Source: a phage. From it: 64,000 nucleotides of DNA. The translations under genes and the position numbers were made by a program. Position 1 is the stretch's first letter. Each line of letters starts with the position of its first letter. The stretch lies in the sequence record PZ386969.1; one strand, given 5' to 3'. The notes below the pieces were generated by a model, which was not told the DNA's origin, made no database searches, and worked only from the letters and a program-made list of their open reading frames with translations. Positions 8,440 through 41,074 of this stretch are shown here, piece by piece.

Positions 8440-8469
8440 TTTGATGCTCCATCGATAGGTGCCATTATA

Positions 8470-8482
8470 GAGATATTTAGTA
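8470..8482 (-). promoter_or_regulatory. late-promoter-like CTAAATATCT upstream of the large structural gene
   Basis: minus-strand CTAAATATCTCTATAATGG about 35 nt before the ATG. Confidence 0.4.
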
Positions 8483-8647
8483 TACAACCAACCGAGGAAT
8501 AGAAAGAAATAAGCCCGAAGGGGCTTTGATTATCTTTCTGTGGTTATGGTCATGGATTCGAGACCTCTGCCATTCATGGTAGATGGTATTCAATTAGGTA
8601 TGTTTAATATATCAGGTCAGACTATTACCTTAACTGCTGTATCGATT

Positions 8648-8680
8648 AGGGTAATGCAAACAGTAAACTCTATATAAAAA
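8648..8680. repeat. ~35-nt conserved element downstream of a tailspike gene (copy 1; copy 2 at 13505..13540)
   Basis: AGGGTAATG(C/A)AAACAGTAAACTCTATATAA shared at both loci, each just 3-prime of a tailspike stop. Confidence 0.6.
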
Positions 8681-8695
8681 GTATTATTAATAAGT

Positions 8696-8728
8696 AAAAA
8701 CAACCCCATAGAAGTGGGGTTGTTTTTA
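8696..8728. terminator. bidirectional rho-independent terminator
   Basis: AAAAACAACCCCAT-AGAA-GTGGGGTTGTTTTT. Confidence 0.6.
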
Positions 8729-8740
8729 AGTGATTATTAC

Positions 8741-10657: not shown

Positions 10658-10678
10658 AACGACCTCTTTGTTTTTCTA

Positions 10679-10701
10679 AGAAACCCCGCCGAAGCGGGGT
10701 T
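10679..10701 (-). terminator. GC hairpin with CTTCGG-type loop between tailspike genes
   Basis: AACCCCGC-TTCG-GCGGGGTT on minus strand after stop of gene 10706..13210. Confidence 0.5.
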
Positions 10702-10705
10702 AGTT

Positions 10706-13210: not shown

Positions 13211-13215
13211 TTGAA

Positions 13216-13255
13216 GATACCCCATAGAGGATTTGCCAATATGGGGTATTTAGTC
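13216..13255 (-). promoter_or_regulatory. late-promoter-like CTAAATACCCC with inverted copy GGGGTAT covering the translation start
   Basis: perfect 10-bp inverted repeat ATACCCCATA/TATGGGGTAT. Confidence 0.5.
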
Positions 13256-13290
13256 TGAACTAATAAATTTATGAACAAAGGTATAACAAG

Positions 13291-13310
13291 AACCCCGCCA
13301 AAGCGGGGTT
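13291..13310. terminator. GC-rich hairpin
   Basis: AACCCCGC-CAAA-GCGGGGTT. Confidence 0.4.
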
Positions 13311-13318
13311 TGACACTC

Positions 13319-13492
13319 CTATTCCAGACACATTTCAAAATGTATACCAACATCACCCCACCCATCATAAACAGACGACCCCGATATTCTTGATCCATCT
13401 ATGTTGGCGAAATAAAAATACGCTGACCCATCATTGATATCACCTATAAAGTTCTTATACCCGTTTGATGACAACCCGAGAGAGAGCCAACA
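13319..13492 (-). pseudogene. possible relic of a tailspike C-terminal segment (no start codon)
   Basis: minus-strand frame gives ...ANIDGSRISGSSVYDGWG...; the heptapeptide ISGSSVY also occurs near the C-terminus of tailspike 8741..10657 (NFNGISGSSVYADG). Confidence 0.3.
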
Positions 13493-13504
13493 GCATTATC
13501 AATC

Positions 13505-13540
13505 AGGGTAATGAAAACAGTAAACTCTATATAATAAAAG
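13505..13540. repeat. conserved element downstream of tailspike gene (copy 2)
   Basis: see 8648..8680. Confidence 0.6.
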
Positions 13541-13562
13541 CCCCCAAAATTGGGGGCTTTTT
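13537..13562. terminator. bidirectional rho-independent terminator
   Basis: AAAGCCCCC-AAAATT-GGGGGCTTTTT. Confidence 0.6.
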
Positions 13563-13568
13563 ATTATA

Positions 13569-16500: not shown

Positions 16501-16622
16501 AAAGTCAGGACAGCATCTGGTCCATGCTCAATCGTACCCGTGTTGAGGACACCAGCCAAAGTAGACTGCTCTTCAGCCGCCAGACCGAGAGGGAAAACAG
16601 GCTGTGTTGGTTTATTAGCCAT
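13569..16622 (-). CDS. tailspike protein (~1017 aa from second ATG)
   Basis: N-terminal conserved block (VVYFSVG..GYKVIYDK..VLVHSAGSVDLG..); long repetitive body; start chosen at ATG 16622 after GGGGTATTTGAA. Confidence 0.75.
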   Translation of the reverse strand: MANKPTQPVFPLGLAAEEQSTLAGVLNTGTIEHGPDAVLTLPEGNASAGLPSSVRYNADSDEFEGYYENGGWLPLGGGGIRWEVLPHASTATLTEGRGYLINNTTGASTVVLPSPTRIGDSVTICDAYGKFATYPLTVSPSGNNLYGSTEDMAITTDNVSATFTWSGPEQGWIITSGVGLGQGRVYSREIFTKILASETSTVTLNTPPTIVDVYADGKRLAESKYSLDGNVITFSPSLPASTELQVIEYTPIQLGNGGGSSSSTITWVYNGGSAIGGETEITLDVVVDDVPAIDINGSRQYKNLGFTFDPLTSKITLAQELEPEDEVVVIINGTPNIYNQIDHTLREVARVTNVKDTEVVYFSVGAVLSGYKVIYDKVTQRSYFIPELPTGTTAVSLSSSAVLVHSAGSVDLGALAVSREEYVTLPGSFDTGVTVNTKNELVVSNDIKYRWDGSVPKVVPPESTPLGTGGVGPGAWLVVGVVGLEQRLASWKGSSLIDSGSLSLYKKSGVFGDGGNVSDKYQVVLHSDGFWYKYNGTLPVSYGAAPDSSWTNVGKLTGFNEHSPENFGAIPNDPSFDCLPAIKLAIATGTLNLNGNSTYHVTDEVVIPSYLRGNLNGATIKAIGSVWPTLKAVVRVSKFPVGTATVDVANTENQVRGLRLIGSLNVDCADIASYGFYARLLCAESEMGSIYAYNANRYGIVMFACWYFQMGTLHANNCARGMALGYSTEGEQGDTYVNATHFPHISAWGTDKSTGLGYDPITDDASKYTIGAGIILGRGLSTSVGVICSENTAGAGVVTMDPAAWDIGVMYCEGNSKDFTQEGEPKVSLLSSKANSESHTLTISTLHLSAGCGILTRSNQERVLIRSLYRFDNAKTFHSYCTADTVEVGSSNYYVLNGHNYNAPAALIKEPLNVDFVRSGLTLSEWTSTVIGHFAGSTAEQQLYVKLPASPSGLDLQIDSEDGTEYITVTGTDFKVSLTKKRLPSKLYEIRIGGVSTVAVTDCSILVRSKKGDWYYW

Positions 16623-16624
16623 TT

Positions 16625-16666
16625 CAAATACCCCTAAATGTGTTCGTTTCATCTAGGGGTATTTAG
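16625..16666 (-). promoter_or_regulatory. late-promoter-like CTAAATACCCC with inverted copy immediately before the ATG
   Basis: perfect 11-bp inverted repeat AAATACCCCTA/TAGGGGTATTT. Confidence 0.5.
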
Positions 16667-16668
16667 TT

Positions 16669-17859
16669 TTAGAAAGAAGCTACAATAGAATAATCGACCG
16701 AACAAGCAGTTGTTGTATTCGCATTAACAACGGAAACTCTCAATTTACCACCCACCACAGCCCCTGTGAACGTCACTGTACCGCTCGTACTTTTCTGAAC
16801 CAACAACTCCGACTTGATAGTTCCGTCGCGAGTTATGGTTACTCGATATGTATCAACAACGTTACCTGTTCCCCATTGCGCGGTCACCAGTATTTGACAA
16901 AGGTTCACCAAATCAAAATCTGGAAGAGCCGTCGTCCCAGAAGCCGAAACCGTGTAAGAAGACAAATTCGTTTTGGTACGATAAACGGCGTTCCCTAAAC
17001 TATTGTCGACAGAGGTCATCTTGGCATTATACGTTGATACGCTAACTTTATCACTGGAAAGAGAACTGATGCTGTTATCCAGAGATGACATCTTCGTGTT
17101 GTACGTGCTAACCTCGACTTTATTACCCAGAGACGTATTGATATTGGAGATACTCAAATCCAATGACGCCATCTTCGTGTTGTAAGTCGAGGTGTTAACT
17201 TTCCCGTTTAACGATGTGTTGATGTTATTGATTCGGGACTCTAGACTCAGCATATCTGCGTCATACGCTGTCGTTGTCACATATCCATTAAATCGGTTAT
17301 CTGCAAACAACGCATCAAAAAATGCAGTCATTGTCCAATAACGCGCTCCAGAATCTGTTTGTACTGGAATTGAAGTTGGCATCGTTGATCCGGTATACGC
17401 AGACAATCTGGTGAAATCCAAATTGAATTTGTAATATCCGGATGTCAACAACTCCCCAGCCAAACCAGAACCAGGTGGGGTAGTGTCTTCACTGACACCA
17501 TGCTTTCTCAACATGCTCAGGTTAACACCATCTGTCGCTATCGTAGGCTCATCCACGATAGACAGTTTCTTCCCAGCCGGAACAGTCAGGCCGCCGTTGG
17601 CGGTCAACAACGCAACAAAAGTCTTGCTCCCATTGATCGTTTGTTCACCACCGTCGGTGCGGATCACTTTGTTTTTCAGTGTGTCGTAGATATTATCCAC
17701 AGAACGCTTCAGCTCGTATGTCAGATGAGCTGAAGGAGGGAACAACGGATCATCAACAGCGAAATCGTTGACAACATCAGTCTTGCTTATTTTATCGTCA
17801 ACAGAAGAAAGGATTGCATCAATCTGCTGACCTGTGTATCGACTCAGAAAATCGGCCAT
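16669..17859 (-). CDS. tail fibre protein with three tandem ~21-aa repeats (396 aa)
   Basis: repeat units INNINTSLNGKVNTSTYNTKMASLD / ISNINTSLGNKVEVSTYNTKMSSLD / SDKVSVSTYNAKMTSVD; sits between baseplate and tailspike genes. Confidence 0.6.
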   Translation of the reverse strand: MADFLSRYTGQQIDAILSSVDDKISKTDVVNDFAVDDPLFPPSAHLTYELKRSVDNIYDTLKNKVIRTDGGEQTINGSKTFVALLTANGGLTVPAGKKLSIVDEPTIATDGVNLSMLRKHGVSEDTTPPGSGLAGELLTSGYYKFNLDFTRLSAYTGSTMPTSIPVQTDSGARYWTMTAFFDALFADNRFNGYVTTTAYDADMLSLESRINNINTSLNGKVNTSTYNTKMASLDLSISNINTSLGNKVEVSTYNTKMSSLDNSISSLSSDKVSVSTYNAKMTSVDNSLGNAVYRTKTNLSSYTVSASGTTALPDFDLVNLCQILVTAQWGTGNVVDTYRVTITRDGTIKSELLVQKSTSGTVTFTGAVVGGKLRVSVVNANTTTACSVDYSIVASF

Positions 17860-27744: not shown

Positions 27745-28305
27745 TTAAAGGCGGGAATCCAGCCAGGCGTTCTTTTCGTTCTGCCACTCCCAAGCGGCCT
27801 GACCGCCTGCCATGATCACTTCCAGGGAAGGAGTATTGTCATCCTCGCCACCGTGAAGGTCAGGGTCGAAGCCGTCATCTTCAGGATCGTCTTCGCATTC
27901 ATTCTGATAAGCGGAATATTCGATGTAATGGGCTTCAGCATCGCAATCCATGTCACCCAGAGCAGCCTCAAGAGTCATTTTACCTTCGGCAATCAGCTCG
28001 GCAGTCGCATCGTCCAGGCCTGCGTCTTTCGCTTCAACGAACAGTTCGTGACGTTTCTGGAAAAGGAAGAAGTTCATGGCTTCAATGCGTGAGTCGAAGT
28101 ACTCTTTGCGGGGAATCATGATTTCACGACCATCGACTTTGCTTACCATCAGCAGGCATGAACCGTATTCAACCAGGTAGCGACCGCCTTTCACTGGGTT
28201 GGAACCGTCAATTGTTCCCAGAGTGGTGATTGCGCGGCCTTCTTCAGTTCCGTACATTACAGTTTTACCAGATTTGGATTGAGTGATAATTTCGATTGCC
28301 ATGAT
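27745..28305 (-). CDS. hypothetical protein (186 aa from ATG at 28305), acidic C-terminal half
   Basis: track start moved to ATG with AGAAGGAAA upstream. Confidence 0.45.
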   Translation of the reverse strand: MMAIEIITQSKSGKTVMYGTEEGRAITTLGTIDGSNPVKGGRYLVEYGSCLLMVSKVDGREIMIPRKEYFDSRIEAMNFFLFQKRHELFVEAKDAGLDDATAELIAEGKMTLEAALGDMDCDAEAHYIEYSAYQNECEDDPEDDGFDPDLHGGEDDNTPSLEVIMAGGQAAWEWQNEKNAWLDSRL

Positions 28306-28397
28306 GTATTTCCTTCTCTTCAGATTGTTGTTTGTTCGTACTACAATTAGAAGTATACGCCAGTTATTGAAGAAGTAAACTTTATTCAATAAATATT

Positions 28398-28610
28398 TTA
28401 ATAAATTTTGAACTCTGCTCCCCTGTACGTCGCCTTCCCTCGTTCTATGAGGCCGTCAGGGACAATTACCTTTGTCGGCCAACCACCATCTGGAGCCTTA
28501 ACAGTCAGGCGCGTCTTGTGATCGCCTAGCTGTGTTTGTTCATAAATCCTTCCGCGCACTATCGTCGCCCCGCCTTGGGTGACAAGCAATCTCTTGTTTA
28601 CCACATTCAT
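28398..28610 (-). CDS. small hypothetical protein (70 aa)
   Basis: ORF track. Confidence 0.35.
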   Translation of the reverse strand: MNVVNKRLLVTQGGATIVRGRIYEQTQLGDHKTRLTVKAPDGGWPTKVIVPDGLIERGKATYRGAEFKIY

Positions 28611-28630
28611 TCCCTAAACACCAAAAGAAA

Positions 28631-28646
28631 GGGGAGTTTCCTCCCC
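28631..28646. repeat. palindromic hairpin GGGGAGTTTCCTCCCC (identical copy at 48255..48270)
   Basis: exact 16-mer at two loci, both just downstream of a stop codon. Confidence 0.6.
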
Positions 28647-28652
28647 TTGAAC

Positions 28653-29225
28653 TTATTTCTTCAGATCAGGCCACGCACCAGAGGTCGCAGTAGACCCAGC
28701 TGGGGGAGCAGACTCAAGATCGGGAGCACCCGACTGAGTAACAACAGTGGGATCTTTCTGTACGACCCGAACCCCAAATTGCTTGAGAGCATCCATAGCT
28801 TGGGCTTTTCGCCTGTTGCTTTTGTAGTGGTTGTAGCCTTTGATACCGAATGATGCACTAATTGCTGTCAATAACGAATAGGTATACCATTCAGGTGCGG
28901 TATCTAGTGCCTGAAGGCCACCGATTACTGCTTTGATGAAATCCCCTTTATGATACTCACCAGGGAACAGAAACAGTTCCACAACCGGAGCAGTCATGAC
29001 GAGGATGGCGGGTATGGCCAACACGATAGTCCAGAATTCGTCTTTCCAAGACCCGCCGACTTCGGTAATCTTAGACAGCTCCCAATCTGAGGAGGACTTG
29101 ATGGCCTCCAGCTTGACGTCGTGTTTGGCCTGTACAACTTCCCGCTTATATTGGATCAAATCAGTCCCGAGGTTCCAGAGTTGCTTGAGCGCCCCTGGGA
29201 TCATACCAACGAGGGGGATTGCCAT
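28653..29225 (-). CDS. membrane protein (190 aa from ATG at 29225)
   Basis: track start 29243 is TTG; ATG 29225 has AAGGAG upstream; two hydrophobic segments. Confidence 0.5.
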   Translation of the reverse strand: MAIPLVGMIPGALKQLWNLGTDLIQYKREVVQAKHDVKLEAIKSSSDWELSKITEVGGSWKDEFWTIVLAIPAILVMTAPVVELFLFPGEYHKGDFIKAVIGGLQALDTAPEWYTYSLLTAISASFGIKGYNHYKSNRRKAQAMDALKQFGVRVVQKDPTVVTQSGAPDLESAPPAGSTATSGAWPDLKK

Positions 29226-29304
29226 AATAAACTCCTTGGTCAATGAATGGCTCTATGGTTAAATATGCCCACGTGCTAACGGCACGGATAACCTGGAGAA
29301 TTAC

Positions 29305-32304
29305 ATGACCGTTTTCTATACGAACGTTGCCCGCAGGGGCAATGACCTGTTGATTCGAATTGCAGATGACATGGGTAATCGCCGTCTGTTGAAAAAGAAA
29401 TTCGAACCCACTCTCTATTTACCCACGGCTGACTATTCAAATGTTGAAAAGGTCGGCCTTCTCAATGAACCCCTGGTAGCCAAGCAGTTCCCTTCCATGC
29501 GTGACGCTGATAACTATCTTGAAGAGTACAAGGAAGTCCAGGGTGCTGCCATTTACGGGCAGACCGATTATGCATACCAGTTCATCGCCCATAGCTTTCC
29601 TGGAAAGATTGAGCCGGATTATTCCAACATCCATATTGCTAACCTCGATATCGAAGTGTTCTCCGCCGGGTGGAAAGATGGAAAGATGACCAAAGGTCCA
29701 TTCCCTCACCCAACCATTGAGCAGCAGACGTTCAAAGGGAATGAGGCGCGCATTCGCCGCTTCCATCAGCAGGTACTGGCCAACCATGACTTCATCCGTG
29801 AGCACTTTCCCAGTTCCTTTATCAGCAACAACGTCACTGATAAGTTCCCTATCATTGACAGCAACGGCAAGATCACCCAAGACATGAATGCGGCGTTCCC
29901 CATTACCCTGATCCAGCTTCAGGACATGGCGACCAATAAGTTCATGGTGTGGGGTATGCCGTGCGCGAAGGATCGTGCGAAGTTCAGATACGATCCAGAA
30001 GACGCGGAGATCGGTGGACTTGAGGTGGAGTACAAGGAGTTTGTCACCGAGCAGGATCTGCTGCGATCTTTCCTTGACTTCTGGTCACAGCGTCAGTTCG
30101 ACGGCTGGACAGGTTGGAACATTGAGACGTTTGATAGTCCTTATCTTGTTGAGCGCATGAATCAGGTTCTGGGTGAGGCTGAAACGTCGCGCCTCAGTCC
30201 TTGGGGCATCATTAAGAAGCGCATCATCCGTGATAAGAAGGGTGACATCACGACGTATCAGTTCGTGGGTTGCCCTATGCTCGATTATATGCAGATCTAC
30301 AAGAAGCACACGTACACCACCCGTGAACGCTACTCTCTTGACTGGATTGCTTACTGTGAGCTGGGTGAGAAGAAGATGGACTACAGTGAGAGCAAGTCGC
30401 TCTTTGATCTGTACTTCAACGACTACTGCAAACACACCCGATATGGTATCAAAGACGTTAAGCTGGTATGGCGACTTGAACAGAAGCTGCGCCTGCTCCA
30501 GCTGATGTTCGTCCTGGCCTACCGCACCAAGTCCAACTATGAAGACGGTCTGGGCACTGTGGCTCCGTGGCTGGCCATGTGCTACTATCGCCTGTACGAG
30601 AAGGGGATAGTGCCTAAGATCCAGCGTGTATACGATGGTCCGACCGAATTTGAGGGTGCATACGTCATGGATGTGACACCAGGAATCTACTTCTGGGTCT
30701 TCTCGGAAGATTTGAACTCCCTGTATCCTCACATCATTCAGCAGTACAACCTCGGTCCTGAGACTATCGTTGGCGACAAACACCAGCGCCGTGAGATCAT
30801 TGAGGCTATGTGTGAAGAGCTTGCTGCTCAGATGAATAACATGGCAACGCCGATGCACAAACGTCGGTTGATGAAAGCCCTTCACGACAAGCTGTTGCGT
30901 GCGGTTGACGAACGCCTGCAGGTTGTTGATGAGTTGGTTGCCCTGGGTGAGTTCCACTTTGAAACCCTGCGCCGCTACAACGTGTCGTTCACGCCGAACG
31001 TTCAATTCTTCAGCAACGAGAAGATGTCGTTCCTGTCTGAAATCATGCGTGGTATCTACAGCGACCGTAAAGTAGAGAAAGCCAAGGGTCTGAAGTATGA
31101 GCAGTGGGCTGGTTGGTGTAAAGAGATGTCGAAGGGCGACTTCCATCTTGAGTCTGCCATGAAGTCTCGCTACTATGACCCAGAGTGGTATGAAGAGCAC
31201 AAGAACATTGATCTTGATGCCCTGACCGAAGTGATGAAGAAGTGGGAAGATCTGGGTGTTGCTCAAGATACCCTTCAGCAAGGTCTGAAGATCTTGATGA
31301 ACGCAGGTTATGGCGCGATCTCAAACGTCTGGTTCAAAGAGTACTTCAACCTCAACATTGCCGAAGCCATCACCACATCCGGTCAGCTGATCAACAAGTG
31401 GAACAAGCGTTACACTGATGACTATCTGAACAAGCTGTGTGGTACAACAGGCCAGGACTTCGTCATCGCAGGGGATACCGACTCCAACTACATCTGTATT
31501 GAGCGTCTTGTCAAGCAGTTGTGGCCTGATGTTACTGACCATCATGCTATGGTTGATAATATCGACCAATGGATCAAAGACAACTACCAGCCGAAGACCA
31601 ATGAGTGGGCACAGCTTCTGTGTAACACCATGAACGGATTTGAACAGCGTATGGTATGGGAGCGTGAGGTCATTGCGTCAGCCGCTGTCTGGCGAGCCAA
31701 GAAGATGTATGCCATGGCCGTGTACGACAGTGAGGGTATCAAGTATGAGAAGCCGAAGATCAAGTTCAAAGGTCTGGAAGCCCGCAAGTCCACCACGCCG
31801 GAATGGTGTCGTGAGCGCCTTGTCAAGTGCTATGAGAAGATCCTACTCGGCACCGAAGAGGAAGTACAGACGCTCATCTCCCAGTACAAAGAGGAGTATA
31901 TGAAACTCTCTGTAGACGATATCGCCAAGGCGTCAGGCGTGTCCGACATAGAGAAGTGTGTGGCTGCTGACGGATCGTTTATATCTGGTGCTCATTTTGC
32001 CGCCAAGGCGTGTGTGGGCTACAACCGTCTGGTTGAGAAGAACGAAGATCTGGGTCTACCGATGATCGAGTCGGGTGATAAGGTACAGATGGTGTTGTTG
32101 AAGCCGGGCAACCCGTTTGGGCAGAACTACTTTGCATATCCTGAGTTCTTCCCTGAGGAGCTTGGTCTGGGCAAATGGGTGGATTATCAGGCGGCCTTTG
32201 AGAAGTCCTTCATTGATCCGATTCAGTCTATCCTCGACGTGGTCGGCTGGTCACACAAGCGCCGTGTGAACCTTCTTGCCATGATGCAAAAGAAGAAAGG
32301 TTGA
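29305..32304 (+). CDS. DNA polymerase, family B (T4 gp43-like)
   Basis: exonuclease motif LDIEVF, polymerase motif A DLNSLYP, motif B KILMNAGYG, motif C AGDTDS; 999 aa. Confidence 0.9.
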   Translation: MTVFYTNVARRGNDLLIRIADDMGNRRLLKKKFEPTLYLPTADYSNVEKVGLLNEPLVAKQFPSMRDADNYLEEYKEVQGAAIYGQTDYAYQFIAHSFPGKIEPDYSNIHIANLDIEVFSAGWKDGKMTKGPFPHPTIEQQTFKGNEARIRRFHQQVLANHDFIREHFPSSFISNNVTDKFPIIDSNGKITQDMNAAFPITLIQLQDMATNKFMVWGMPCAKDRAKFRYDPEDAEIGGLEVEYKEFVTEQDLLRSFLDFWSQRQFDGWTGWNIETFDSPYLVERMNQVLGEAETSRLSPWGIIKKRIIRDKKGDITTYQFVGCPMLDYMQIYKKHTYTTRERYSLDWIAYCELGEKKMDYSESKSLFDLYFNDYCKHTRYGIKDVKLVWRLEQKLRLLQLMFVLAYRTKSNYEDGLGTVAPWLAMCYYRLYEKGIVPKIQRVYDGPTEFEGAYVMDVTPGIYFWVFSEDLNSLYPHIIQQYNLGPETIVGDKHQRREIIEAMCEELAAQMNNMATPMHKRRLMKALHDKLLRAVDERLQVVDELVALGEFHFETLRRYNVSFTPNVQFFSNEKMSFLSEIMRGIYSDRKVEKAKGLKYEQWAGWCKEMSKGDFHLESAMKSRYYDPEWYEEHKNIDLDALTEVMKKWEDLGVAQDTLQQGLKILMNAGYGAISNVWFKEYFNLNIAEAITTSGQLINKWNKRYTDDYLNKLCGTTGQDFVIAGDTDSNYICIERLVKQLWPDVTDHHAMVDNIDQWIKDNYQPKTNEWAQLLCNTMNGFEQRMVWEREVIASAAVWRAKKMYAMAVYDSEGIKYEKPKIKFKGLEARKSTTPEWCRERLVKCYEKILLGTEEEVQTLISQYKEEYMKLSVDDIAKASGVSDIEKCVAADGSFISGAHFAAKACVGYNRLVEKNEDLGLPMIESGDKVQMVLLKPGNPFGQNYFAYPEFFPEELGLGKWVDYQAAFEKSFIDPIQSILDVVGWSHKRRVNLLAMMQKKKG

Positions 32305-32315
32305 TTCAATAAACC

Positions 32316-32340
32316 AAAGGGGGATATAATTCCCCCTGTT
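32316..32340 (+). terminator. hairpin after polymerase gene, preceded by TTGATTCAATAAA
   Basis: AAAGGGGGA-TATAAT-TCCCCCTGTT. Confidence 0.5.
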
Positions 32341-32366
32341 AACCCTTTGACAAACAGGTGATTGAA

Positions 32367-32708
32367 ATGAAACTCAATAAGATTCTTCTGGTGTGCGCTC
32401 TGGCTTTCTCTACCACTGCGTGTTCCACCCTTCTGGACGTTGCGTCTACTGTAGACCTTGACGCGCCGACGTTCACCAATGAGCAGGCTGTGTCCAAGAT
32501 GGAAGACACCATTAAGGCGCATGCGGCGTTGGATAACGCCACCCCAGGTCCGCTCCAAACTGTCTGCAACTATGACGATTCCATCCAGGAAGACGAAACT
32601 TACCACTGCATCACCTACGTGAAGCAGGCCTCCGTCGTTCTGTATGCAGATTGTACCGAAGAACAGTGTGTTGCTACAGGCTACGATAAAGTTGAGGAAG
32701 ACAAATGA
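32367..32708 (+). CDS. putative secreted or lipoprotein (113 aa from ATG)
   Basis: track start is GTG; ATG 32367 with AGGTG upstream; N-terminal KLNKILLVCALAFSTTAC signal-like sequence with Cys. Confidence 0.45.
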   Translation: MKLNKILLVCALAFSTTACSTLLDVASTVDLDAPTFTNEQAVSKMEDTIKAHAALDNATPGPLQTVCNYDDSIQEDETYHCITYVKQASVVLYADCTEEQCVATGYDKVEEDK

Positions 32709-33484
32709 ACAACCTGGTTTGTATCTATGATATGAAATCAAAGGTCGGTGGCCTGTATCGCGTCCTCGTGGATGTTGACCTGACGTTGGTCGACAGCCTC
32801 TCCCCTTGGGTGCAGTGGTTTAACGAAGAGAACATCGCCGCCGCTGCTATCGCTACGGGGGAACATAAGTCATACCAGTTCCAGCCGATTACCAAAGAGT
32901 GTTATATGTCCCATGCTGGCGACCTGGCTATTCTGATGCGTGAACGTGCGCATCCGGCGTGGCTATACCATGAAGTCCAATTGGGGATGCACAAACAACG
33001 TGTGCCAAGCGGTAACGATCCTATGGACTGGTGGCGTCGCCCTGACTTGTACGCCAAGATGAACCCGCTCCCCGGCGCTTACGAGTTCCTGGTAAATCTG
33101 AAGGATATCTTGCTTGAAGATTTCGACAATGTTGAATTCATCGCAGTGTCCAAGTGCGAGCCGGAACACGAGCGCAGCAAGCGTCAGTTTGTCTATGACA
33201 AGTTCCCTGGTATCTTCAACGGGTTTGTCAGCACCGACGAAAAGCATCTGCTGGCTGGCGATGTCCTGATTGATGACAATCCGAAGTATGTCGAGCCGTG
33301 CGGCCTGAACAACATCTTTGTCATCTTTGTTCCTCAGGGCAATTATGAAAAACTGGATCTTTCGAATTCGGAAGACATGCTTTATATTAAACCAGTAGAA
33401 GGCCAGAATCACTTCGACTTCCTGAATTACAATATTGTTGAAGTGGTTAACCGCCTGATTAGTCATTATCAATACGTCCGATAG
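32705..33484 (+). CDS. HAD-superfamily hydrolase, possibly a nucleotidase
   Basis: HAD motif I VLVDVDLTLVD near N-terminus; overlaps previous stop. Confidence 0.45.
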   Translation: MNNLVCIYDMKSKVGGLYRVLVDVDLTLVDSLSPWVQWFNEENIAAAAIATGEHKSYQFQPITKECYMSHAGDLAILMRERAHPAWLYHEVQLGMHKQRVPSGNDPMDWWRRPDLYAKMNPLPGAYEFLVNLKDILLEDFDNVEFIAVSKCEPEHERSKRQFVYDKFPGIFNGFVSTDEKHLLAGDVLIDDNPKYVEPCGLNNIFVIFVPQGNYEKLDLSNSEDMLYIKPVEGQNHFDFLNYNIVEVVNRLISHYQYVR

Positions 33485-33493
33485 GAGGACATC

Positions 33494-33799
33494 GTGCAAG
33501 AACAATCCAAGTTTGGGGAAACCCCAGACAAGCGTTCCGGTGATAGCGACATGGATAGCGTGATTAACCATGTGAACAACTTCATTCGCCAGCAGGAGAC
33601 TCCAACTCCTATCGGTGCAGCCAAGGCTCTTCATGATGTACTGGTGAAGATCGGCCAGCGCTCTGAAGCGGATGAAATCTTCTATAACTTTGACGACCAG
33701 TATAAAGTTAAGTTTGAAGAGAATGGCCGCCCACAGGTTGCTGTGTTCTGGGCACCTTGGTTGGGCGGCGTGAGCTGGCGTATTGAGGATGCTGTGTAA
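33494..33799 (+). CDS. hypothetical protein (101 aa), probable GTG start
   Basis: AGGAGG 5 nt upstream of GTG; abuts next gene. Confidence 0.4.
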   Translation: MQEQSKFGETPDKRSGDSDMDSVINHVNNFIRQQETPTPIGAAKALHDVLVKIGQRSEADEIFYNFDDQYKVKFEENGRPQVAVFWAPWLGGVSWRIEDAV

Positions 33800-34704
33800 T
33801 GGCAAAAATTATCGTAGTGAAAGGAACCAGCGGTACGGGTAAGGGCACCCGTGTTGTCCAGTTCATCGAATGGCTGCGCACTAAGCTGGAGCCTACCGAA
33901 CTGACCTACACCGTTGGTGACAAGACTCGCCCGTTTGGCCTGAAGTTCGGAGAGCTGAAGTTAATCTTCGTTGGGCAGTACACCGTGTCTAACAAATCCG
34001 GTCTGGCTTCTTGGACGTCGATGGACGCCATTCATGCTGCTACAGGCTCAGGCGATATTGCTCGTGATCTAATCAAGTGCTGGTTGGTTCAGGGATACAC
34101 TCTGGTGTGTGAGGGCGAACCTCTCATGCTATCGGACAAATGGCGTCCTGAATGGATGTTCAAGAACTATCCGATTGAATCATTGGCGCTGCTGTACTTT
34201 GCGTACCCCGACCGCTATCAGTACGATGCTCGTATCCGTGGTCGATCTGGTAAAGAAGCAGGGAACTCCGGCTGGTCGCGCAACGAATCTTACTACAAGG
34301 AGTTTGAGAAGTCGAAGGCCGAAATGCTGGCACTGGGGTGGAACGTTTTGGCAGATGTGTACAGCGGACAGGATGTTGAGTACATGAAACCTTCTCCAAA
34401 TGAGTGGGAAATGGACCCACGCAGCGAGCTGGCAGTCATGCCGTTTGATGCCCCTCTTTGGGTTGTTGGGGATGCTATCGCTTATCAGATGGATATCGGT
34501 GTGGTCGACCTTGACATCAAAGACTTCTATGCTTTCTGTGAAACCAATCCGATGACTCGTGAAATCGGCGGCCAAGATCCTTTGGCGCACAGAGTCCCTG
34601 AGAAGCCGCAGAAGGCATCCAAAACTAAAACCAAGGCGAGCGCCCAGCCAGAAGCAACGAAGGCAGCGTCGCGCTCTCTCCTTGACCTGATGAAGAAGGG
34701 GTGA
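33799..34704 (+). CDS. P-loop kinase-like protein; candidate nucleotide or DNA-base kinase
   Basis: Walker A GTSGTGKGT at residues 9-17; start overlaps previous stop (TAATG). Confidence 0.45.
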   Translation: MAKIIVVKGTSGTGKGTRVVQFIEWLRTKLEPTELTYTVGDKTRPFGLKFGELKLIFVGQYTVSNKSGLASWTSMDAIHAATGSGDIARDLIKCWLVQGYTLVCEGEPLMLSDKWRPEWMFKNYPIESLALLYFAYPDRYQYDARIRGRSGKEAGNSGWSRNESYYKEFEKSKAEMLALGWNVLADVYSGQDVEYMKPSPNEWEMDPRSELAVMPFDAPLWVVGDAIAYQMDIGVVDLDIKDFYAFCETNPMTREIGGQDPLAHRVPEKPQKASKTKTKASAQPEATKAASRSLLDLMKKG

Positions 34705-34904
34705 TCATGAAACGGTTGTCTAATTATCTGTTGTTCATTGGTCTGGTTATGGCAGCCGTTTCAATGTGTACTGCCCTAGCCTATCATTTCACCCCTCTGG
34801 ACTTAACAACCTCAGAGAAGTTGAACGTGACTGTGATGTACTGTATTGGCGCGGTGATGTCTATCGGCGCTGCTGGTTACAAAATATTCAAGGAACCAAA
34901 ATGA
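34701..34904 (+). CDS. small membrane protein (67 aa)
   Basis: ORF track; hydrophobic helices; ATGA overlap with next gene. Confidence 0.4.
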   Translation: MIMKRLSNYLLFIGLVMAAVSMCTALAYHFTPLDLTTSEKLNVTVMYCIGAVMSIGAAGYKIFKEPK

Positions 34905-35278
34905 AAATTCAAATCCCTCGCGATGCTGTGGCTGTTGCGATTGACTACACCGGAAACGCCAAGCACATTACTGCCGTGCGCCTGATTCCTGAAAAGAACT
35001 GCGTCATCCCTCAGTTCCAGCTGAATGCCAATCCGTCGTCCAAAGACTTCGGTAAGTGGTTGCAGGCTGCTCCGTTCCGTACCCAGACGAATGCCCAGAT
35101 GTTCATCTCGGGTAAGACCCACACTGTAGCCCGTCTTTGGTTTGTGACCGCCGACCGCCGCTTCATCGATATGTGGGAACGTCCGATGGGGTTCGTGAAG
35201 CCGGAAGATATTCAGCTGGCTCCTGAGCCTGAAGCTGTGGCTCCTGAAGAGGAAGCGAAAGATGCATCATTTATCTAA
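34901..35278 (+). CDS. hypothetical protein (125 aa)
   Basis: ATG 34901 with AGGAACC upstream; track ORF 34766 trimmed. Confidence 0.45.
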   Translation: MKIQIPRDAVAVAIDYTGNAKHITAVRLIPEKNCVIPQFQLNANPSSKDFGKWLQAAPFRTQTNAQMFISGKTHTVARLWFVTADRRFIDMWERPMGFVKPEDIQLAPEPEAVAPEEEAKDASFI

Positions 35279-36500
35279 AATGCCGACGGGTTATACGCCT
35301 CCGGCTGAATGGAAGTACCCGATTGACCTGGCTGTTGATTATCGCAAGCCTGAGAATCGCATGTACCTGCTCAAGGCTTGGGTGGAGGCGCTGTCCTACA
35401 CAGAAGAGCACAACCAGCAGATGCGTCTGATGGACTATGCGATCGAAGTCACTGAAGGCATCAGCCTCGAACAGAAAGTCGAGCGCAAGATCTGGATGGC
35501 ATTCCTGTGGGGTTGTTGCTATAACGCCGTCGGACCGTGGACGATCTACAGTGAGTTCCCTGTGCCGCCTCAGTCTAAGGAAGAGATGCAGCGCTTCTCT
35601 GATTGGTATAATCTGAACTTTGAACGCATGCGATTCGATACCGACTGTCGCTACCGCAAGTCCAAGATGATTCCGTGTGTTCAGTCCTATATTGACTGGC
35701 TGGCTGGCCGTACTCAATATGACGCTTTCCGTGGGATGTTGGTGTGCATCGATAAGACAGAACAATTCACCCAGCTGTGGGACACGGCGATGTCCTGGAA
35801 ATACTTCGGTCGCCTGAGCGCCTGGAACTTCCTGGAAGCCCTGAACATGGTCTTCGGGAACGAATACACCATTGACGTCCCTGGCTTCATGCTGCGTGAT
35901 CGTGATGGAAGCGAGTCCAACCGTAATGGCGCGGCGTTCTTGTCCAACCGTGACGATTGGGTGACTAAACACGGGAAGAAAAAGATCAACGGTTGTCCTA
36001 TCACGGATGAAGAGTGTGACATCCTTGAGGCCGACCTTGAGCAGGCGTTCCAGGATTGTGTGGCTGAGTTCGGGCACCTGACGTTCATCAACCGCCTGAA
36101 CTTTGAAACCTCCGGTGCTTGTTGGCTGAAGAAATTCTTCCGACTGAAGAATACCCGTTACATCGGGTGGGACGCAGAGCGTACCTGGGATGAGATAGAC
36201 TACATGGAACGCGTCTGGCCTGAATACTCCTGCGCAGCGCTCTGGGAAGCCCGTTCGCTCTGGCTGCCAGATACCCTGTTATGTGAAAAGGCTCCTGCAG
36301 GGCACGTTCCAGGCGTCCAGAAGTGGAAGATGCCTGTATTCTTTGAGACTGGTGTTCCTCTGCATATCTGGCACCTGCAAAAGGGTACGCGCTGGGAACC
36401 ATCCGAGGTATGTACGAACCTGAAGATGCCTGTGCGCAAGGTTGAGGACAAGCAGCCGCGCAAACATAGCGTCAACCTCATGACACTCTTGAAACGCTGA
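35262..36500 (+). CDS. hypothetical protein (412 aa); possible DNA-modification enzyme by context
   Basis: ORF track; GAGGAAG ribosome site; sits with kinase, HAD and PLP genes beside the polymerase; no motif confirmed. Confidence 0.3.
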   Translation: MHHLSKMPTGYTPPAEWKYPIDLAVDYRKPENRMYLLKAWVEALSYTEEHNQQMRLMDYAIEVTEGISLEQKVERKIWMAFLWGCCYNAVGPWTIYSEFPVPPQSKEEMQRFSDWYNLNFERMRFDTDCRYRKSKMIPCVQSYIDWLAGRTQYDAFRGMLVCIDKTEQFTQLWDTAMSWKYFGRLSAWNFLEALNMVFGNEYTIDVPGFMLRDRDGSESNRNGAAFLSNRDDWVTKHGKKKINGCPITDEECDILEADLEQAFQDCVAEFGHLTFINRLNFETSGACWLKKFFRLKNTRYIGWDAERTWDEIDYMERVWPEYSCAALWEARSLWLPDTLLCEKAPAGHVPGVQKWKMPVFFETGVPLHIWHLQKGTRWEPSEVCTNLKMPVRKVEDKQPRKHSVNLMTLLKR

Positions 36501-36536
36501 TATAAATATCCTCGCCTATAAAGTGAGGATATTATC

Positions 36537-36704
36537 ATGTTACAAGATCTGTTGGTGTACGCGCTTCCTGGCGTTGTTGTCGGTTTCGTAGCTGGTGCTC
36601 TGGTCTTCCGTAAACACGCGCAAGACGGTGAAGTGATTGTTCAGAAGGGTAAGGACATCCTGGAACAAATCGAAGCCAAGCTGGAAGAGCTGAAGAAAAA
36701 GTAA
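36537..36704 (+). CDS. small membrane protein (55 aa), not in ORF track
   Basis: ATG with GAGGA upstream; hydrophobic core LVYALPGVVVGFVAGALVF. Confidence 0.4.
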   Translation: MLQDLLVYALPGVVVGFVAGALVFRKHAQDGEVIVQKGKDILEQIEAKLEELKKK

Positions 36705-36721
36705 TCTGACTGCGGATTGCG

Positions 36722-36772
36722 TTCTTCAATAAAGGGGAATGGGTTAATATTAGCCCGTTCCCCTTTCTTTTT
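36722..36772 (+). terminator. terminator hairpin preceded by TTCTTCAATAAA
   Basis: AAAGGGGAATGGG-TTAATATTAG-CCCGTTCCCCTTT followed by CTTTTT. Confidence 0.55.
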
Positions 36773-36786
36773 GCAAGGATTGATTT

Positions 36787-36978
36787 ATGACACCTCAATA
36801 CAAAATATTGGTCACCAGCCGTTGTTATGCTTATGGACAGGGTGAAGCAATATCAGTACACACAGTTGTAGTTGATTTTGAAAACAAAGAACAAGCAGAT
36901 TTGGCATTCTATAATATGCAGCAGAGCACAGCTCCTGCCGATATTGGCGTTAAACAAGTTTATACGAAATTATACTGA
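36787..36978 (+). CDS. small hypothetical protein (63 aa)
   Basis: ORF track; AAGGA upstream. Confidence 0.35.
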   Translation: MTPQYKILVTSRCYAYGQGEAISVHTVVVDFENKEQADLAFYNMQQSTAPADIGVKQVYTKLY

Positions 36979-36989
36979 GGTCCTATATC

Positions 36990-37202
36990 ATGGCAATGCA
37001 ACGAATTGAAGACATGTCTGCGCTCGATATGGAAGCGACTTTTGGTGATTACTTTGAGTCCACCCCAAAACAAAAAGAACCTCTGGTTGGTCGTTTGGTT
37101 GTTTCTGAAGCGTTCGCCCAGAAGGTTCGCGAAGGTCTTCCTGCAGAATATAGTTGTTTCCGTAATGGCGCTCCTGTTATCGTCATGGGAGAATCTAAAT
37201 GA
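36990..37202 (+). CDS. small hypothetical protein (70 aa)
   Basis: ORF track. Confidence 0.35.
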   Translation: MAMQRIEDMSALDMEATFGDYFESTPKQKEPLVGRLVVSEAFAQKVREGLPAEYSCFRNGAPVIVMGESK

Positions 37203-37585
37203 CACAGTCCGAATACAAACAGTACCTGTACGATCTGTTCATGAAAGAAACGGATGGTACACTCCACCCTAAGAAAGCCACTATCGTCGCGTTGCATTCT
37301 GAAGGTAATTTGTCTATAGCATATATCCGAAAAGAACTCGATTTGTTGGGAATCGAATACGAAGACCACATCACGGATACACGTGCTTTAAAAAGAGCAA
37401 CAGCAATCGTTCTTCACACCGTTGCAACAATTATGCATCGCCACCATGTTTCTTTTGACGATGCAATAACTCCACAGTACCATGAAGAGCGTTGGGATTT
37501 GTTGTTAAAGAACGGTGCTAATCCTGAGCATAAAGATCAACTCCTTGGTATGACCAAGGCGCAGCTCGTCGGTGAATCCAAATGA
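37199..37585 (+). CDS. hypothetical protein (128 aa)
   Basis: ORF track; ATGA overlap with neighbours. Confidence 0.45.
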   Translation: MTQSEYKQYLYDLFMKETDGTLHPKKATIVALHSEGNLSIAYIRKELDLLGIEYEDHITDTRALKRATAIVLHTVATIMHRHHVSFDDAITPQYHEERWDLLLKNGANPEHKDQLLGMTKAQLVGESK

Positions 37586-38697
37586 TCTACCTCCTGTTTG
37601 GTGTGCCATTGGTACTGGCTATCCTCTTTGTGACCTACCACCGCAAGACCCATGAGCCGAAAGAGACTCTGATTGCGACGGCGATTGTGGTGGTGCTGTC
37701 CTGTCTGATTCAGGTCGGGGCTTATGCTGCGTTCTCCCTCGGCAGTTCAGGGGACGTTGAGATCCTGAACGGGTACGTCACTGCAAAGGAGCGGAATAAG
37801 GTGAGCTGTGAGCATTCATATGAATGTATGTGCTATTACACAACATCTTGTACAGGTTCAGGAAATAACCGATCTTGTACACAAACGCGTCATTGCAGCA
37901 CATGCTATGAGCACTCTTATGACGTTGATTGGGATGTATTAACAACCGTCGGCGATCTGAGCATTGACCGTATTGATCGTCAGGGTACTACAGAGCCTCC
38001 GCGTTGGACACAAGTTAAAATCGGGGAACCTGTGGCACGTGAACATTCATATATGAATTATGTGCTGGGTAACAAAGACTCTCTGTTCTCTCGTTCAGAC
38101 CAGCAGTTTGCTGAGCGCTTCAAAGACAAGATTCCGAAGTATCCCGAAGTCTATGACTACTATCGCGTCACTCGTGTACTGAATGTGTCTGGTCTGGCGT
38201 TACCGACCACATACTGGAACGATTATCTGAATGATGCCCTGAAGAAGCTGGGCGCAGCCAAGCAGGTGAACATCGTCTGGGTTGTGACTTCCGGGCAGCC
38301 AGTTGAATACTTCCAGGGCTTGGTCTATGCTTGGGATGGTGGTAAAAAGAACGACGTTATCGTCGTGACCGACATCAACAAAGACCTGAAGATCAACTGG
38401 GGTAAGAGCACTTCGTTCGCTGATGGTATGCACAACCGTGAACTCCATTCTCGCAATGGCATGGCTCTCACAGGCCACGACATGGGTGTCGGTGTCATGG
38501 CTGATGTTGTCACTAACATCACCAAAGGCTACAACCGCGTTGAGATGAAGGAAATGGAGTACCTGAAGTGGCGGGAACTCAAGACCTGGGAAGTTGTGGT
38601 TGTTGTTCTGCTGGGCTGCTTACCATTCACCGCAATTTTCATATTACAGCGAATGGAGTACAATGGTGGCCGTCGTCGTTATCCGTTTAATTTTTAA
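37582..38697 (+). CDS. membrane protein with N- and C-terminal hydrophobic helices and Cys-rich ectodomain (371 aa)
   Basis: hydrophobic segments at both ends; cysteine cluster CEHSYECMCYYTTSCTGSGNNRSCTQTRHCSTCYEHSY. Confidence 0.5.
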   Translation: MIYLLFGVPLVLAILFVTYHRKTHEPKETLIATAIVVVLSCLIQVGAYAAFSLGSSGDVEILNGYVTAKERNKVSCEHSYECMCYYTTSCTGSGNNRSCTQTRHCSTCYEHSYDVDWDVLTTVGDLSIDRIDRQGTTEPPRWTQVKIGEPVAREHSYMNYVLGNKDSLFSRSDQQFAERFKDKIPKYPEVYDYYRVTRVLNVSGLALPTTYWNDYLNDALKKLGAAKQVNIVWVVTSGQPVEYFQGLVYAWDGGKKNDVIVVTDINKDLKINWGKSTSFADGMHNRELHSRNGMALTGHDMGVGVMADVVTNITKGYNRVEMKEMEYLKWRELKTWEVVVVVLLGCLPFTAIFILQRMEYNGGRRRYPFNF

Positions 38698-38715
38698 TCA
38701 AAAGAGGAAGTAAGA

Positions 38716-39285
38716 ATGTCTCAATCTAAGGGTATCGCAACAGGTTGGATAGTTGGTTTGGCTTTGCTGGGTATAGTGATTCTCGGCATCAGTACAGTCA
38801 TCAGCTACTTCAACGACTTCAACCGCACTGAGCAGCAGGTCAAGAAGTTCAACAAAGACTCCGAGAACTACCTGAGCAACTACACGCTCAAAGTTCAGGA
38901 GACGGCGCAGATTCCTGACATGTATAAAGACGGCCTGAAGGAAGTGATCAAAGGCACGTTCGAAGGGCGTTATGGTGCTGATGGTTCCAAGGCCGTCATG
39001 CAGTGGATCCAGGAGCAGAATATTCAGTTCGATTCCAGCCTGTACAAAGAGATCCAGGTGGTGATCAGTTCTGGGCGTGATGAATTCCGCATCAGCCAGA
39101 CCAAGAAGCTGGATATCTGCACAATATACGAAACCAAGCTGGCTCAGTTCCCTGGTTCGTTGATTGCTGGCATGTTCGGCTACCCGCGCATCGACCTTGA
39201 CAAGACCTGCCAGGTGGTGAGTGATACCCGTACCCAGGCCGCGTTCGACGCTGGTATTCAGAAACCGATTAACTTCAAAGGCTGA
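38716..39285 (+). CDS. membrane-anchored protein, possibly LemA-like
   Basis: single N-terminal hydrophobic helix then soluble domain; weak resemblance to LemA-type proteins. Confidence 0.35.
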   Translation: MSQSKGIATGWIVGLALLGIVILGISTVISYFNDFNRTEQQVKKFNKDSENYLSNYTLKVQETAQIPDMYKDGLKEVIKGTFEGRYGADGSKAVMQWIQEQNIQFDSSLYKEIQVVISSGRDEFRISQTKKLDICTIYETKLAQFPGSLIAGMFGYPRIDLDKTCQVVSDTRTQAAFDAGIQKPINFKG

Positions 39286-39289
39286 TGTC

Positions 39290-39703
39290 ATGAGCGTGAA
39301 ACTCACTGAATCCCTGACACTGGACCAACAGCAGGCTCTGTTGGATGAAGTGGTGATCTCTGCTATCAAGCAAGGGATTATCAAAGACGACATGTTGATT
39401 GACCGCCCCGAGATGATCCATCATCTGGTGGTGTGCCTGGGTGAGGCCAGCAACCCTCGCAAGAAGATCGTGCTGTTTACTGATGGTGTGATCCTTCCGA
39501 GCGGGAAATGTGCGTTCTTGGATGTGGTTGAACATCCGAACACGAAAGGCAAAGAGGTCAAGACTTCTGTTCCGGTGACCCCATACACCGAGGGTGTTGA
39601 CCAGCTGTCTTGGTTTGAGACAATCAACACCATTTATGTGATGGCACCGGACGGTAAACCAGTTCGGGATCTACGAGGCGGCAAAGTAGAATCTGAAGAC
39701 TAA
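39290..39703 (+). CDS. hypothetical protein (137 aa from ATG 39290)
   Basis: in-frame ATG inside track ORF 39221..39703. Confidence 0.4.
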   Translation: MSVKLTESLTLDQQQALLDEVVISAIKQGIIKDDMLIDRPEMIHHLVVCLGEASNPRKKIVLFTDGVILPSGKCAFLDVVEHPNTKGKEVKTSVPVTPYTEGVDQLSWFETINTIYVMAPDGKPVRDLRGGKVESED

Positions 39704-39705
39704 TC

Positions 39706-39752
39706 GTTCTTCAATAAAAGGGGATAGGGTATTATTGCTCTATCCCTTTTTC
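39706..39752 (+). terminator. terminator hairpin preceded by TTCTTCAATAAA
   Basis: AAAAGGGGATAGGG-TATTATTGCT-CTATCCCTTTTT. Confidence 0.55.
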
Positions 39753-39814
39753 GTGGACAGGAACATGACAGACAAGCCAAGAAAGATGAAGAACAAACGC
39801 CGGAGCAAACGCTG

Positions 39815-40282
39815 ATGACTACCAAACCAACTTATGAAGAACTGGCGCAGACCGTTCTGACCTTCGACAGCACCCTGAAGAATCTGTACAAGGTGCTGGG
39901 AAAGAACCCGACTTCAGAGTCAGGAGAAACAGTTAATCTTCTGTTACTGCTGAACCCTCTGTGGGATATTGATGCCACTGTTGCTGCCACTGTTGCTGCC
40001 CTGAAAGATCCTGGGGAACAGGAACCGGAGCCAACCCCTGTATCCACTGGGATTCAGAAATACCTGGAGAACTTTGACGAGTACTCCTTCACCGATCTGC
40101 TCCTGCGTGATATGATCAACACAGAACGCCGTCGCCAGGGGAAGAACTGTCCTGTGGTCCAGTCTGATGAAGAAATCGAGCAGAGTGTTCGAGAAGATCT
40201 GAACAGCACCTACTCGCCGATCGATCTGGCTGTAATGATTGTTCAGGCACTGTCCTATGCTGCCAAGGGGGAAACGAAATGA
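39815..40282 (+). CDS. hypothetical protein (155 aa)
   Basis: ORF track. Confidence 0.45.
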   Translation: MTTKPTYEELAQTVLTFDSTLKNLYKVLGKNPTSESGETVNLLLLLNPLWDIDATVAATVAALKDPGEQEPEPTPVSTGIQKYLENFDEYSFTDLLLRDMINTERRRQGKNCPVVQSDEEIEQSVREDLNSTYSPIDLAVMIVQALSYAAKGETK

Positions 40283-40997: not shown

Positions 40998-41074
40998 TTC
41001 AATTGAAGACACCCACCGTATTATACCCACTCAACCAATATGTTCCCCTTTGACATTGATAGGATTTCTATACT

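Follow-up and report, generated by a model that had tools for sequence, protein, structure and literature searches.

In bacteriophage T4, middle promoters carry a box centred at position -30 and located 12 ± 1 base pairs (bp) from an excellent -10 hexamer. This box replaces the -35 element, and the promoters lie ahead of replication, nucleotide-metabolism and transfer RNA (tRNA) genes (PMC2988021). For the ViI-like phages, the first genome papers stated that neither the early and middle promoters nor the regulators acting on them could be recognised, and Kutter et al. reported no homologues of MotA or AsiA (PMC3184105). Here, we analysed a 64,000-nucleotide (nt) stretch of phage DNA (sequence record PZ386969.1; hereafter the window) in which an 8-nt box, TTCAATAA, recurs. 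We consider it likely that this box serves Ackermannviridae as the upstream recognition element of their pre-late (early and middle) promoters, acting together with a -10 hexamer read by the sigma70 polymerase and embedded in a hairpin at some sites. Over positions 20000-40000, the window shares 96% identity with Escherichia phage vB_EcoM-RPN242 (Ackermannviridae, Aglimvirinae) and 90% with Shigella phage Ag3, which identifies it as DNA of an Ag3-like phage of the ViI-like/Ackermannviridae group.

In this group, TTCAAT[N14]TATAAT has been quoted as one of two "unique regulatory motifs", and its published use consists of counting exact full-length matches, five of which were found in EspM4VN (PMC7283392). 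TTCAAT followed by N14 corresponds to TTCAATAA followed by N12. The motif by itself is therefore, as judged from this correspondence, already known as an in-silico signature of the family, so that its presence in the window was expected. It reportedly goes back to Adriaenssens et al. 2012, Arch Virol 157:2035. Papers on Ag3, CBA120, LIMEstone and PhiSH19 do not mention it, the only literature match being PMC7283392, and the literature search found no transcript mapping for the Ackermannviridae family. The element described here shares with the published motif its sequence, the phage family and the partner motif CTAAATAcCcc. It differs from the published use in its roughly 20 intergenic copies per genome, its variable -10 hexamers, its two spacing classes, an inverted upstream copy and its embedding in hairpins. 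What remains of interest is how the box is recognised; for annotation, the motif marks about ten candidate pre-late promoters in the window.

Enrichment and genomic distribution of the box

The original prediction was centred on positions 32301-32340 (ttgaTTCAATAAAccaaagggggaTATAATtccccct) and described a motif recurring along the window in both orientations. Its long form, TTCTCAATAAA, has no exact match in the window, and TTCTTCAATAAA matches two sites only, 36722 and 39707. The motif was found at every position where it had been placed, either exactly or within a few bases. Its invariant core is the 8-mer TTCAATAA, with 14 copies in the window as compared to 2.2 expected. The 9-mer core TTCAATAAA occurs seven times versus 0.52 expected, a number reached in none of 100 shuffles, and the composite TTCAATAA-N12-TAnnnT five times versus 0.05. 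Enumeration thus places the motif well above chance, and it is a real, strongly non-random feature.

The exact copies of TTCAATAAA, at positions 20781, 21420, 23659, 28385, 32305, 36725 and 39710, are all on the + strand. They are located inside or at the edge of + strand gene runs, with the exception of 28385, which lies among - strand open reading frames (ORFs) at 27745-29243. The motif-bearing + strand block contains four tRNA genes, the DNA polymerase gene (29305-32304), a deoxyribonucleotidase, a nucleotide kinase, a thymidine-hypermodification enzyme and many small ORFs; the functions of these genes are pre-late. The - strand block at 0.6-20.5 kilobases (kb) is structural (baseplate, tail spikes).

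The complete Ag3 genome was examined with its own annotation, in which 92.6% of the sequence is coding and 7.4% intergenic. No other 8-mer of this genome is as strongly enriched in intergenic DNA as TTCAATAA, which has 22 intergenic versus 4 coding copies; 18 of the 22 are oriented as the downstream gene. No copy was found in the structural block of Ag3 (102-134 kb) or in the - strand structural block of the window.

This distribution bears on the idea that the box is a late promoter, read by a gp55-type late sigma factor. The AATAAA part of the box loosely resembles the T4 late promoter TATAAATA, and Ackermannviridae phages encode homologues of gp55, gp33 and gp45. However, the structural blocks are devoid of copies, structural genes are preceded by a different motif, CTAAATACC, and the box is accompanied by a separate, well-spaced -10 hexamer of the sigma70 type. 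The late-promoter reading was rejected on the genomic distribution and we consider it hardly credible. CTAAATACC is the window's form of the partner motif. Five exact copies, three on the - strand (1961-1969, 13245-13253 and 16658-16666) and two on the + strand (26714-26722 and 27209-27217), each lie just 5' of a gene, mostly of the - strand structural genes. In Ag3, the second enriched intergenic word consists of ACTAAATACCCC-type 8-mers, with 8-10 intergenic and no coding copies. CTAAATACC probably acts as the late promoter, recognised by the gp55 homologue.

The survey was extended to relatives from IMG/VR; for 19 further Ackermannviridae genomes it covered about 60% of the sequence each, and for three more distant genomes roughly half. 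Genes were called with a codon-model caller, which recovers 207 of 216 genes and replaced a length-greedy ORF caller that had mis-stranded small genes. Each of the 22 Ackermannviridae contigs carries 16-24 intergenic copies of TTCAATAA per approximately 100 kb and 0-7 coding copies, as compared to 0-1 intergenic copies in RB43-like outgroup loci. At orthologous positions the box is kept while the flanks drift. The 485 intergenic instances from the 22 related genomes were clustered into 126 non-redundant sites, of which 88 have the orientation of the downstream gene (co-oriented) and 38 do not (anti-oriented). Downstream of the box are tRNAs, genes following the DNA polymerase gene, nucleotide and DNA-modification genes, and small ORFs with no assigned function.

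Two spacing classes between the box and the -10 hexamer

A sigma70-type -10 hexamer (TAnnnT) stands at a fixed offset after the 8-mer in 68 of the 88 co-oriented clusters. The offset is exactly 12 bp in 35 clusters, 11-13 bp in 49 and 6-7 bp in 19, against a background of about 1-2 clusters per offset; the 38 anti-oriented clusters show no peak. In the window, the hexamers are TATAAT, TATAGT, TAATAT and TATTAT. Exact full matches to TTCAAT-N14-TATAAT are located at 20781-20806 and 32305-32330, and variants in the -10 hexamer at 36725 (TAATAT) and 39710 (TATTAT).

In the first class (N12), the sequence logo carries information in the box and in TAt.aT only. It has no information for a -35 hexamer, and a canonical sigma70 -35 (TTGACA-like, at 16-18 bp) is missing. 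With start sites predicted about 7 nt after the -10 hexamer, the box would occupy positions -32 to -25 or so, 12 ± 1 bp upstream of a sigma70-type -10 (TAtaaT), in place of the -35. A hexamer of the sigma70 type without a -35 points to host RNA polymerase with sigma70 as the probable source of -10 recognition. A natural test of the start predictions is offered by the copy at 23659, where the -10 hexamer TATAGT ends at 23683 and the predicted start, at about 23690, falls 3 nt before the mature tRNA-Asn at 23693.

The second class (N6-7, class I) has a longer consensus, namely AT-rich DNA with an inverted box TTATTGAA, N5, cTTTACTTC (TTTACTTC), TTCAATAA, N6 and TATAnT. Here, TTTACT forms a -35 hexamer before the box, with a spacer of 16-17 bp, and a canonical -35 is found at class I sites only. 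The same box would thus be placed in the spacer of a strong, early-type UP/-35/-10 promoter. The class also accounts for many reverse copies. Twenty of the 38 anti-oriented copies carry GTAAA 4-6 nt upstream, and each of these belongs to a TTTACT-box-TATAnT promoter of the opposite strand, as its inverted upstream element (TTATTGAA). The copy at 28385 in the window is likewise the inverted upstream copy of a class I promoter on the - strand. Occurrence in both orientations had been held to argue against a simple oriented promoter. This argument fails, because most reverse copies are inverted upstream elements of opposite-strand promoters; the exact copies in the window, 28385 excepted, and most intergenic copies in Ag3 also follow the direction of the genes. 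Judged from the sequence, we have high confidence that the box is an oriented pre-late promoter element.

The N12 class resembles the T4 middle promoters in having a box near -30 that lies 12 ± 1 bp from the -10 (49 of 88 clusters at 11-13 bp, with the peak at 12) and replaces the -35. It also resembles them in the replication, nucleotide-metabolism and tRNA genes located downstream and in the presence of a separate, very strong early class in the same genome. In contrast, the box itself, TTCAATAA, does not correspond to the T4 MotA box, (a/t)(a/t)(a/t)TGCTTtA, Ackermannviridae have no detectable MotA/AsiA homologue, and their box is also found inside the early-type spacer. Class I sites share with the T4 early "uber" UP/-35/TGn/-10 promoters the AT-rich upstream DNA, a TTTAC-type -35, a 16-17 bp spacer, TATAnT and extra conserved positions over about 60 bp (PMC2988021). 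They differ from these promoters in conserving the TTCAATAA spacer box and the inverted upstream copy, not TGn.

The same sites might be plain host sigma70 promoters needing no phage factor, with TTCAAT as a variant -35 or with a strong -10 and A-rich upstream DNA making a -35 dispensable. The -10 hexamers are close to consensus, TTCAAT has T1, T2 and A4 in common with TTGACA, a weak TT precedes the box, and A-rich DNA is present upstream of several window sites. Class I is plausible as a canonical promoter (TTTACT, 16-17 bp, TATAnT), no MotA/AsiA-like gene is detectable, and the published notation TTCAAT[N14]TATAAT implies a -35 variant. However, sigma70 promoters have spacers of 16-18 bp. 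Taking TTCAAT as the -35 of the N12 class gives a spacer of 14 bp, outside this range, and at a spacer of 17 bp the hexamer becomes nnnTTC, which is not conserved. The explanation is weakened by this spacing and by the missing hexamer at the 17 bp position. Moreover, eight invariant bases in a row are more than a -35 hexamer would require, box sites do not generally have a TGn extended -10, and in class I the box is 6 bp nearer the -10 with a separate -35 present. Overall, we regard a plain sigma70 promoter as unlikely, though it is the explanation that most deserves attention beside an upstream recognition box.

The position of the box within class I spacers, typical of a repressor site, raises the question of an operator. 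The box would then be bound by a phage or host protein, such as an early-promoter repressor or a nucleoid protein, its proximity to the -10 would be secondary and it would have no role in promoter recognition. A partial dyad, TTTATT-C-AATAAA, is visible at 21420 and 28385, and inverted box pairs flank class I promoters. But most copies lack the symmetric left half, the strand of the central C tracks the direction of the gene, and the N12 class has no other source of upstream promoter recognition. A pure operator thus appears improbable to us. It could also coexist with a promoter-recognition box, a single factor activating N12 promoters and repressing N6 promoters. As for the suggestion that the motif is a protein-binding or recombination signal, protein binding is compatible with the promoter reading and is no rival to it, and no evidence points to recombination.

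Tandem boxes about 32 bp apart occur in Ag3 at 100541-100573(-) and 64900-64928(-). At both places, a small hairpin comes after the first box, and the second box is part of a class I promoter.

Hairpins around the -10 hexamer and the proposed model

A hairpin abutting the box and holding a -10-like sequence in its loop, as described in the original prediction, was found at 36725, 39710, 32305 and 24721. It was not found at 57640, where the hairpin is upstream of the - strand copy. Nor does a -10-loop hairpin follow the box at 20781, 21420, 23659 or 28385. The most stable hairpins are those at 36725 (-25.8 kcal/mol, z -6.1) and 39710 (-24.0 kcal/mol, z -6.5), each followed by a U-tract (CUUUUU and UUUUU, respectively). 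The hairpin at 24721 (-16 kcal/mol, z -3.4) has no U-tract. At 36725, 39710 and 32305, a stable GC-rich hairpin directly follows the end of a gene, the upstream genes ending 0-21 nt before the box. With their GC-rich hairpin and U-tract directly after a gene, and an upstream A-tract that gives them a bidirectional look, 36725 and 39710 resemble intrinsic terminators. They differ from intrinsic terminators in having a -10 hexamer for a loop and a 5' arm that also serves as promoter spacer, and 32305 and 24721 differ further in having no U-tract.

The 49 N12-class promoters were aligned on their -10 hexamers, and the positional loop occupancy of hairpins of at least 6 bp was recorded. An arm-shuffle control was uninformative, since the G-rich and C-rich arms pair again once shuffled, and the loop-occupancy profile was used instead. 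Occupancy peaks on the -10 hexamer, with 15 of 49 promoters as compared to 3-6 at other positions. Relative to the first base of the hexamer, the 5' arms span -10 to -2 and the 3' arms +6 to +12. Thus, about 30% of N12 promoters, including 32305, 36725 and 39710, have their -10 in the loop of a hairpin with which the upstream gene closes. In each of the 15 hairpin-bearing cases the preceding gene is co-directional, and in 13 it ends no more than 40 nt away, as compared to 19 of 34 hairpin-free promoters. Orthologous copies of a hairpin are nearly invariant. Across about 12 independent loci with this layout, the stem sequences are unrelated; the layout is therefore a recurrent design and not one inherited copy.

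We propose that the spacer and discriminator serve as hairpin arms, with the -10 as the loop, at 32305, 36725 and 39710 and, in a degenerate version, at 24721. A transcript arriving from upstream would fold into the hairpin and would stop where a U-tract follows, or else be stabilised by the hairpin. A transcript from the embedded promoter would begin in the 3' arm. Lacking the 5' arm, it should escape termination. The suggestion of a phage-specific promoter-terminator composite is in this way supported by the distance of 12 ± 1 bp between box and -10, the co-orientation of intergenic copies and the -10 in a hairpin loop at about 30% of N12 promoters.

The hairpins also allow the motif to be seen as nothing but the A-tract of bidirectional intrinsic terminators, or as a signal for RNA 3'-end formation or processing. 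Indeed, the stems at 36725 and 39710 are extended by the AAA of the box, which pairs with the U-tract, the box adjoins hairpins at 4-5 window sites, and at several sites it comes immediately after a stop codon. On the other hand, a hairpin after the box is lacking at about 70% of N12 sites and at every class I site, and the box keeps a fixed distance to the TAnnnT hexamer, not to the stem. The motif is also found in a divergent region without an upstream transcript (20781) and directly before a tRNA gene (23659). The A-tract reading was rejected as most copies are hairpin-free; as an account of the motif, it is very improbable.

In Ag3, at 137974-138010, the box itself is the loop of a 7 bp hairpin (ccagttg / caactgg), and the N12 -10 hexamer TATGAT overlaps the annotated ATG of gp184. 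This overlap suggests that either the start codon of gp184 is misannotated or the promoter serves downstream tRNAs.

Several observations weigh against a promoter box read in this way. The N12 logo shows a weak TT 2-3 nt upstream of the box, possibly a remnant -35, so that some direct contact with sigma70 region 4 may persist. The distances from box to -10 fall into two groups (N12 and N6-7), apart from a few N10 sites, and a single rigid recognition mode does not account for such spacing. A convincing -10 is missing at the intergenic copies 28385 and 57640 of the window and 64928, 100573, 136781 and 78123 of Ag3. The hairpin at 32305 is modest (-15.1 kcal/mol, z -2.6) and has no U-tract, and family-wide only about half of the hairpin-bearing promoters (7 of 15) have a T-rich tail, with at least 5 T in the next 8 nt. 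Searches with T4 MotA, AsiA and MotB by tblastn against the whole of Ag3, the window and 26 partial contigs gave a best E of 1, which leaves room for remote or analogous proteins. Pfam and PHROGs, applied to the first genes behind class I promoters and to two annotated regulators, returned no candidate box-binding protein; as these first genes have no assigned function, no candidate factor emerged. Finally, we infer both promoter and terminator activity from the sequence.

A recognition box nevertheless remains our preferred explanation. The N12 class has no -35, its geometry is that of the MotA box, and the phages have no MotA/AsiA, so another factor may read the box. Most likely, this would be a phage-encoded factor or a remodelled sigma region 4, and we hold with only moderate confidence that a phage factor is needed. 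The form of the polymerase, like the existence of a factor that binds the box, is something we infer. A more specific and tentative scheme, which we think less likely than not to be right in full, is that a putative early protein reads TTCAATAA at -30 and redirects host sigma70 polymerase to some 10-15 middle promoters per genome that lack a -35. The same protein could shut off the early-type promoters through the box in their spacer, and the -10 in a terminator loop would have been selected to couple the termination of early transcripts with re-initiation that depends on the factor. If true, an early protein reading TTCAATAA would represent an analogue, independent of it, to T4 sigma appropriation. 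The testable picture comprises two promoter classes with a common box, an N12 class similar to T4 middle promoters but without -35, MotA or AsiA, and repeated embedding in terminator hairpins. If an activator exists, T4-related phages would have solved the early-to-middle switch a second time, independently, and the activator would be a useful part for engineering these biocontrol phages.

Individual sites and neighbouring features of the window

The first predicted N12 promoter of the + strand (20781-20806) is hairpin-free and lies in a divergent intergenic region. Its box, TTCAATAA, spans 20781-20788 and its -10, TATAAT, 20801-20806; the start is predicted at about 20813, ahead of a gene at 20843-21412. 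The next site (21420-21443, +) has N10 spacing, with the box TTCAATAA at 21420-21427, a -10-like TAAAGT at 21438-21443 and a small ORF downstream. TTTA immediately 5' of this box makes up a -35-like hexamer, TTTATT, with a 17 bp spacer, the same layout as in the cTTTAC-TTCAATAA-N10-TATCAT clusters. At 22105-22130 (+), an N12 site with one mismatch (box ATCAATAA at 22105-22112, -10 TATAGT at 22125-22130) is the ortholog of an exact Ag3 site at 136368. The predicted tRNA-Asn promoter (23659-23683, +) has its box at 23659-23666, N11 and the -10 TATAGT at 23678-23683.

The site originally placed at 24717 is a degenerate one (24721-24765, +), with a one-mismatch box TTCAATGA at 24721-24728, N13 and a -10-like TAAAAT at 24742-24747, ahead of a gene at 24788-25444. 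The TAAAAT lies inside the loop of a hairpin formed by AGGGGGTT and AACCCCCT. On the - strand, the predicted class I (early-type) promoter at 28352-28392 consists of a -35 TTTACT (28379-28374), the box TTCAATAA (28371-28364), N6 and a -10 TATACT (28357-28352), and would drive the gene 28302-27745. Upstream of it is AT-rich DNA with the inverted box that reads TTCAATAAA on the + strand at 28385-28393, the site previously noted at 28383.

Behind the DNA polymerase gene, the predicted N12 promoter at 32305-32338 (+) begins one base past the stop codon (32302-32304). Its box covers 32305-32312, and the -10 TATAAT, at 32325-32330, lies in the loop of a GGGGGAT/ATTCCCCC hairpin (32318-32337); the start is predicted at about 32337-32338 and the next ATG is at 32367. 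The two remaining exact sites are predicted N12 promoters within putative intrinsic terminators, both on the + strand. At 36725-36772, the box (36725-36732) precedes a -10 TAATAT (36745-36750) in the loop of a 16-pair hairpin (36731-36766) followed by CTTTTT. The predicted start, G36757, is in the 3' arm, and the next gene begins at 36787. At 39710-39756, the box (39710-39717) is followed by TATTAT (39730-39735) in the hairpin loop and then by TTTTT; the predicted start A39742 is again in the 3' arm, and the gene downstream is 39815-40282. A weak possible member, TTCAATTG with two mismatches, N13 and TATTAT (40998-41024, +), lies ahead of rIIA (41075).

An antisense exact copy of TTCAATAA (TTCAATAAc, 57640-57647) is found between two + strand genes, in an element spanning 57640-57669 on the - strand with the hairpin GGGAAGTATATACTCCCCC directly upstream on that strand. 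Over 57640-57690, the copy adjoins the hairpin GGGGGAGTATATACTTCCC and is preceded on the - strand by CTTAATAA-N13-TATACT, whose -10 lies in the loop of the hairpin. Ag3 has conserved this arrangement at 16893-16900(-). The element could be an antisense promoter or a relic.

Another short sequence, CCTTTGACA, occurs exactly in two 5' leaders, at 32344-32352 (gene after the polymerase) and 41047-41055 (rIIA), just before the start codons; it is not enriched overall, with 23 copies found versus 18 expected when one mismatch is allowed. The DNA polymerase gene of the window (29305-32304) is a single intact ORF of 999 codons. In RPN242 and several other relatives, it is annotated as two pieces with a homing-endonuclease-type insert between them. 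Finally, the GC content falls to 0.42 over window positions 8000-16000, as compared to about 0.50 elsewhere. The large - strand ORFs located there (8741-16652) align with the tail-spike region of Ag3, and together the GC drop and this alignment suggest that receptor-binding genes have been exchanged horizontally.

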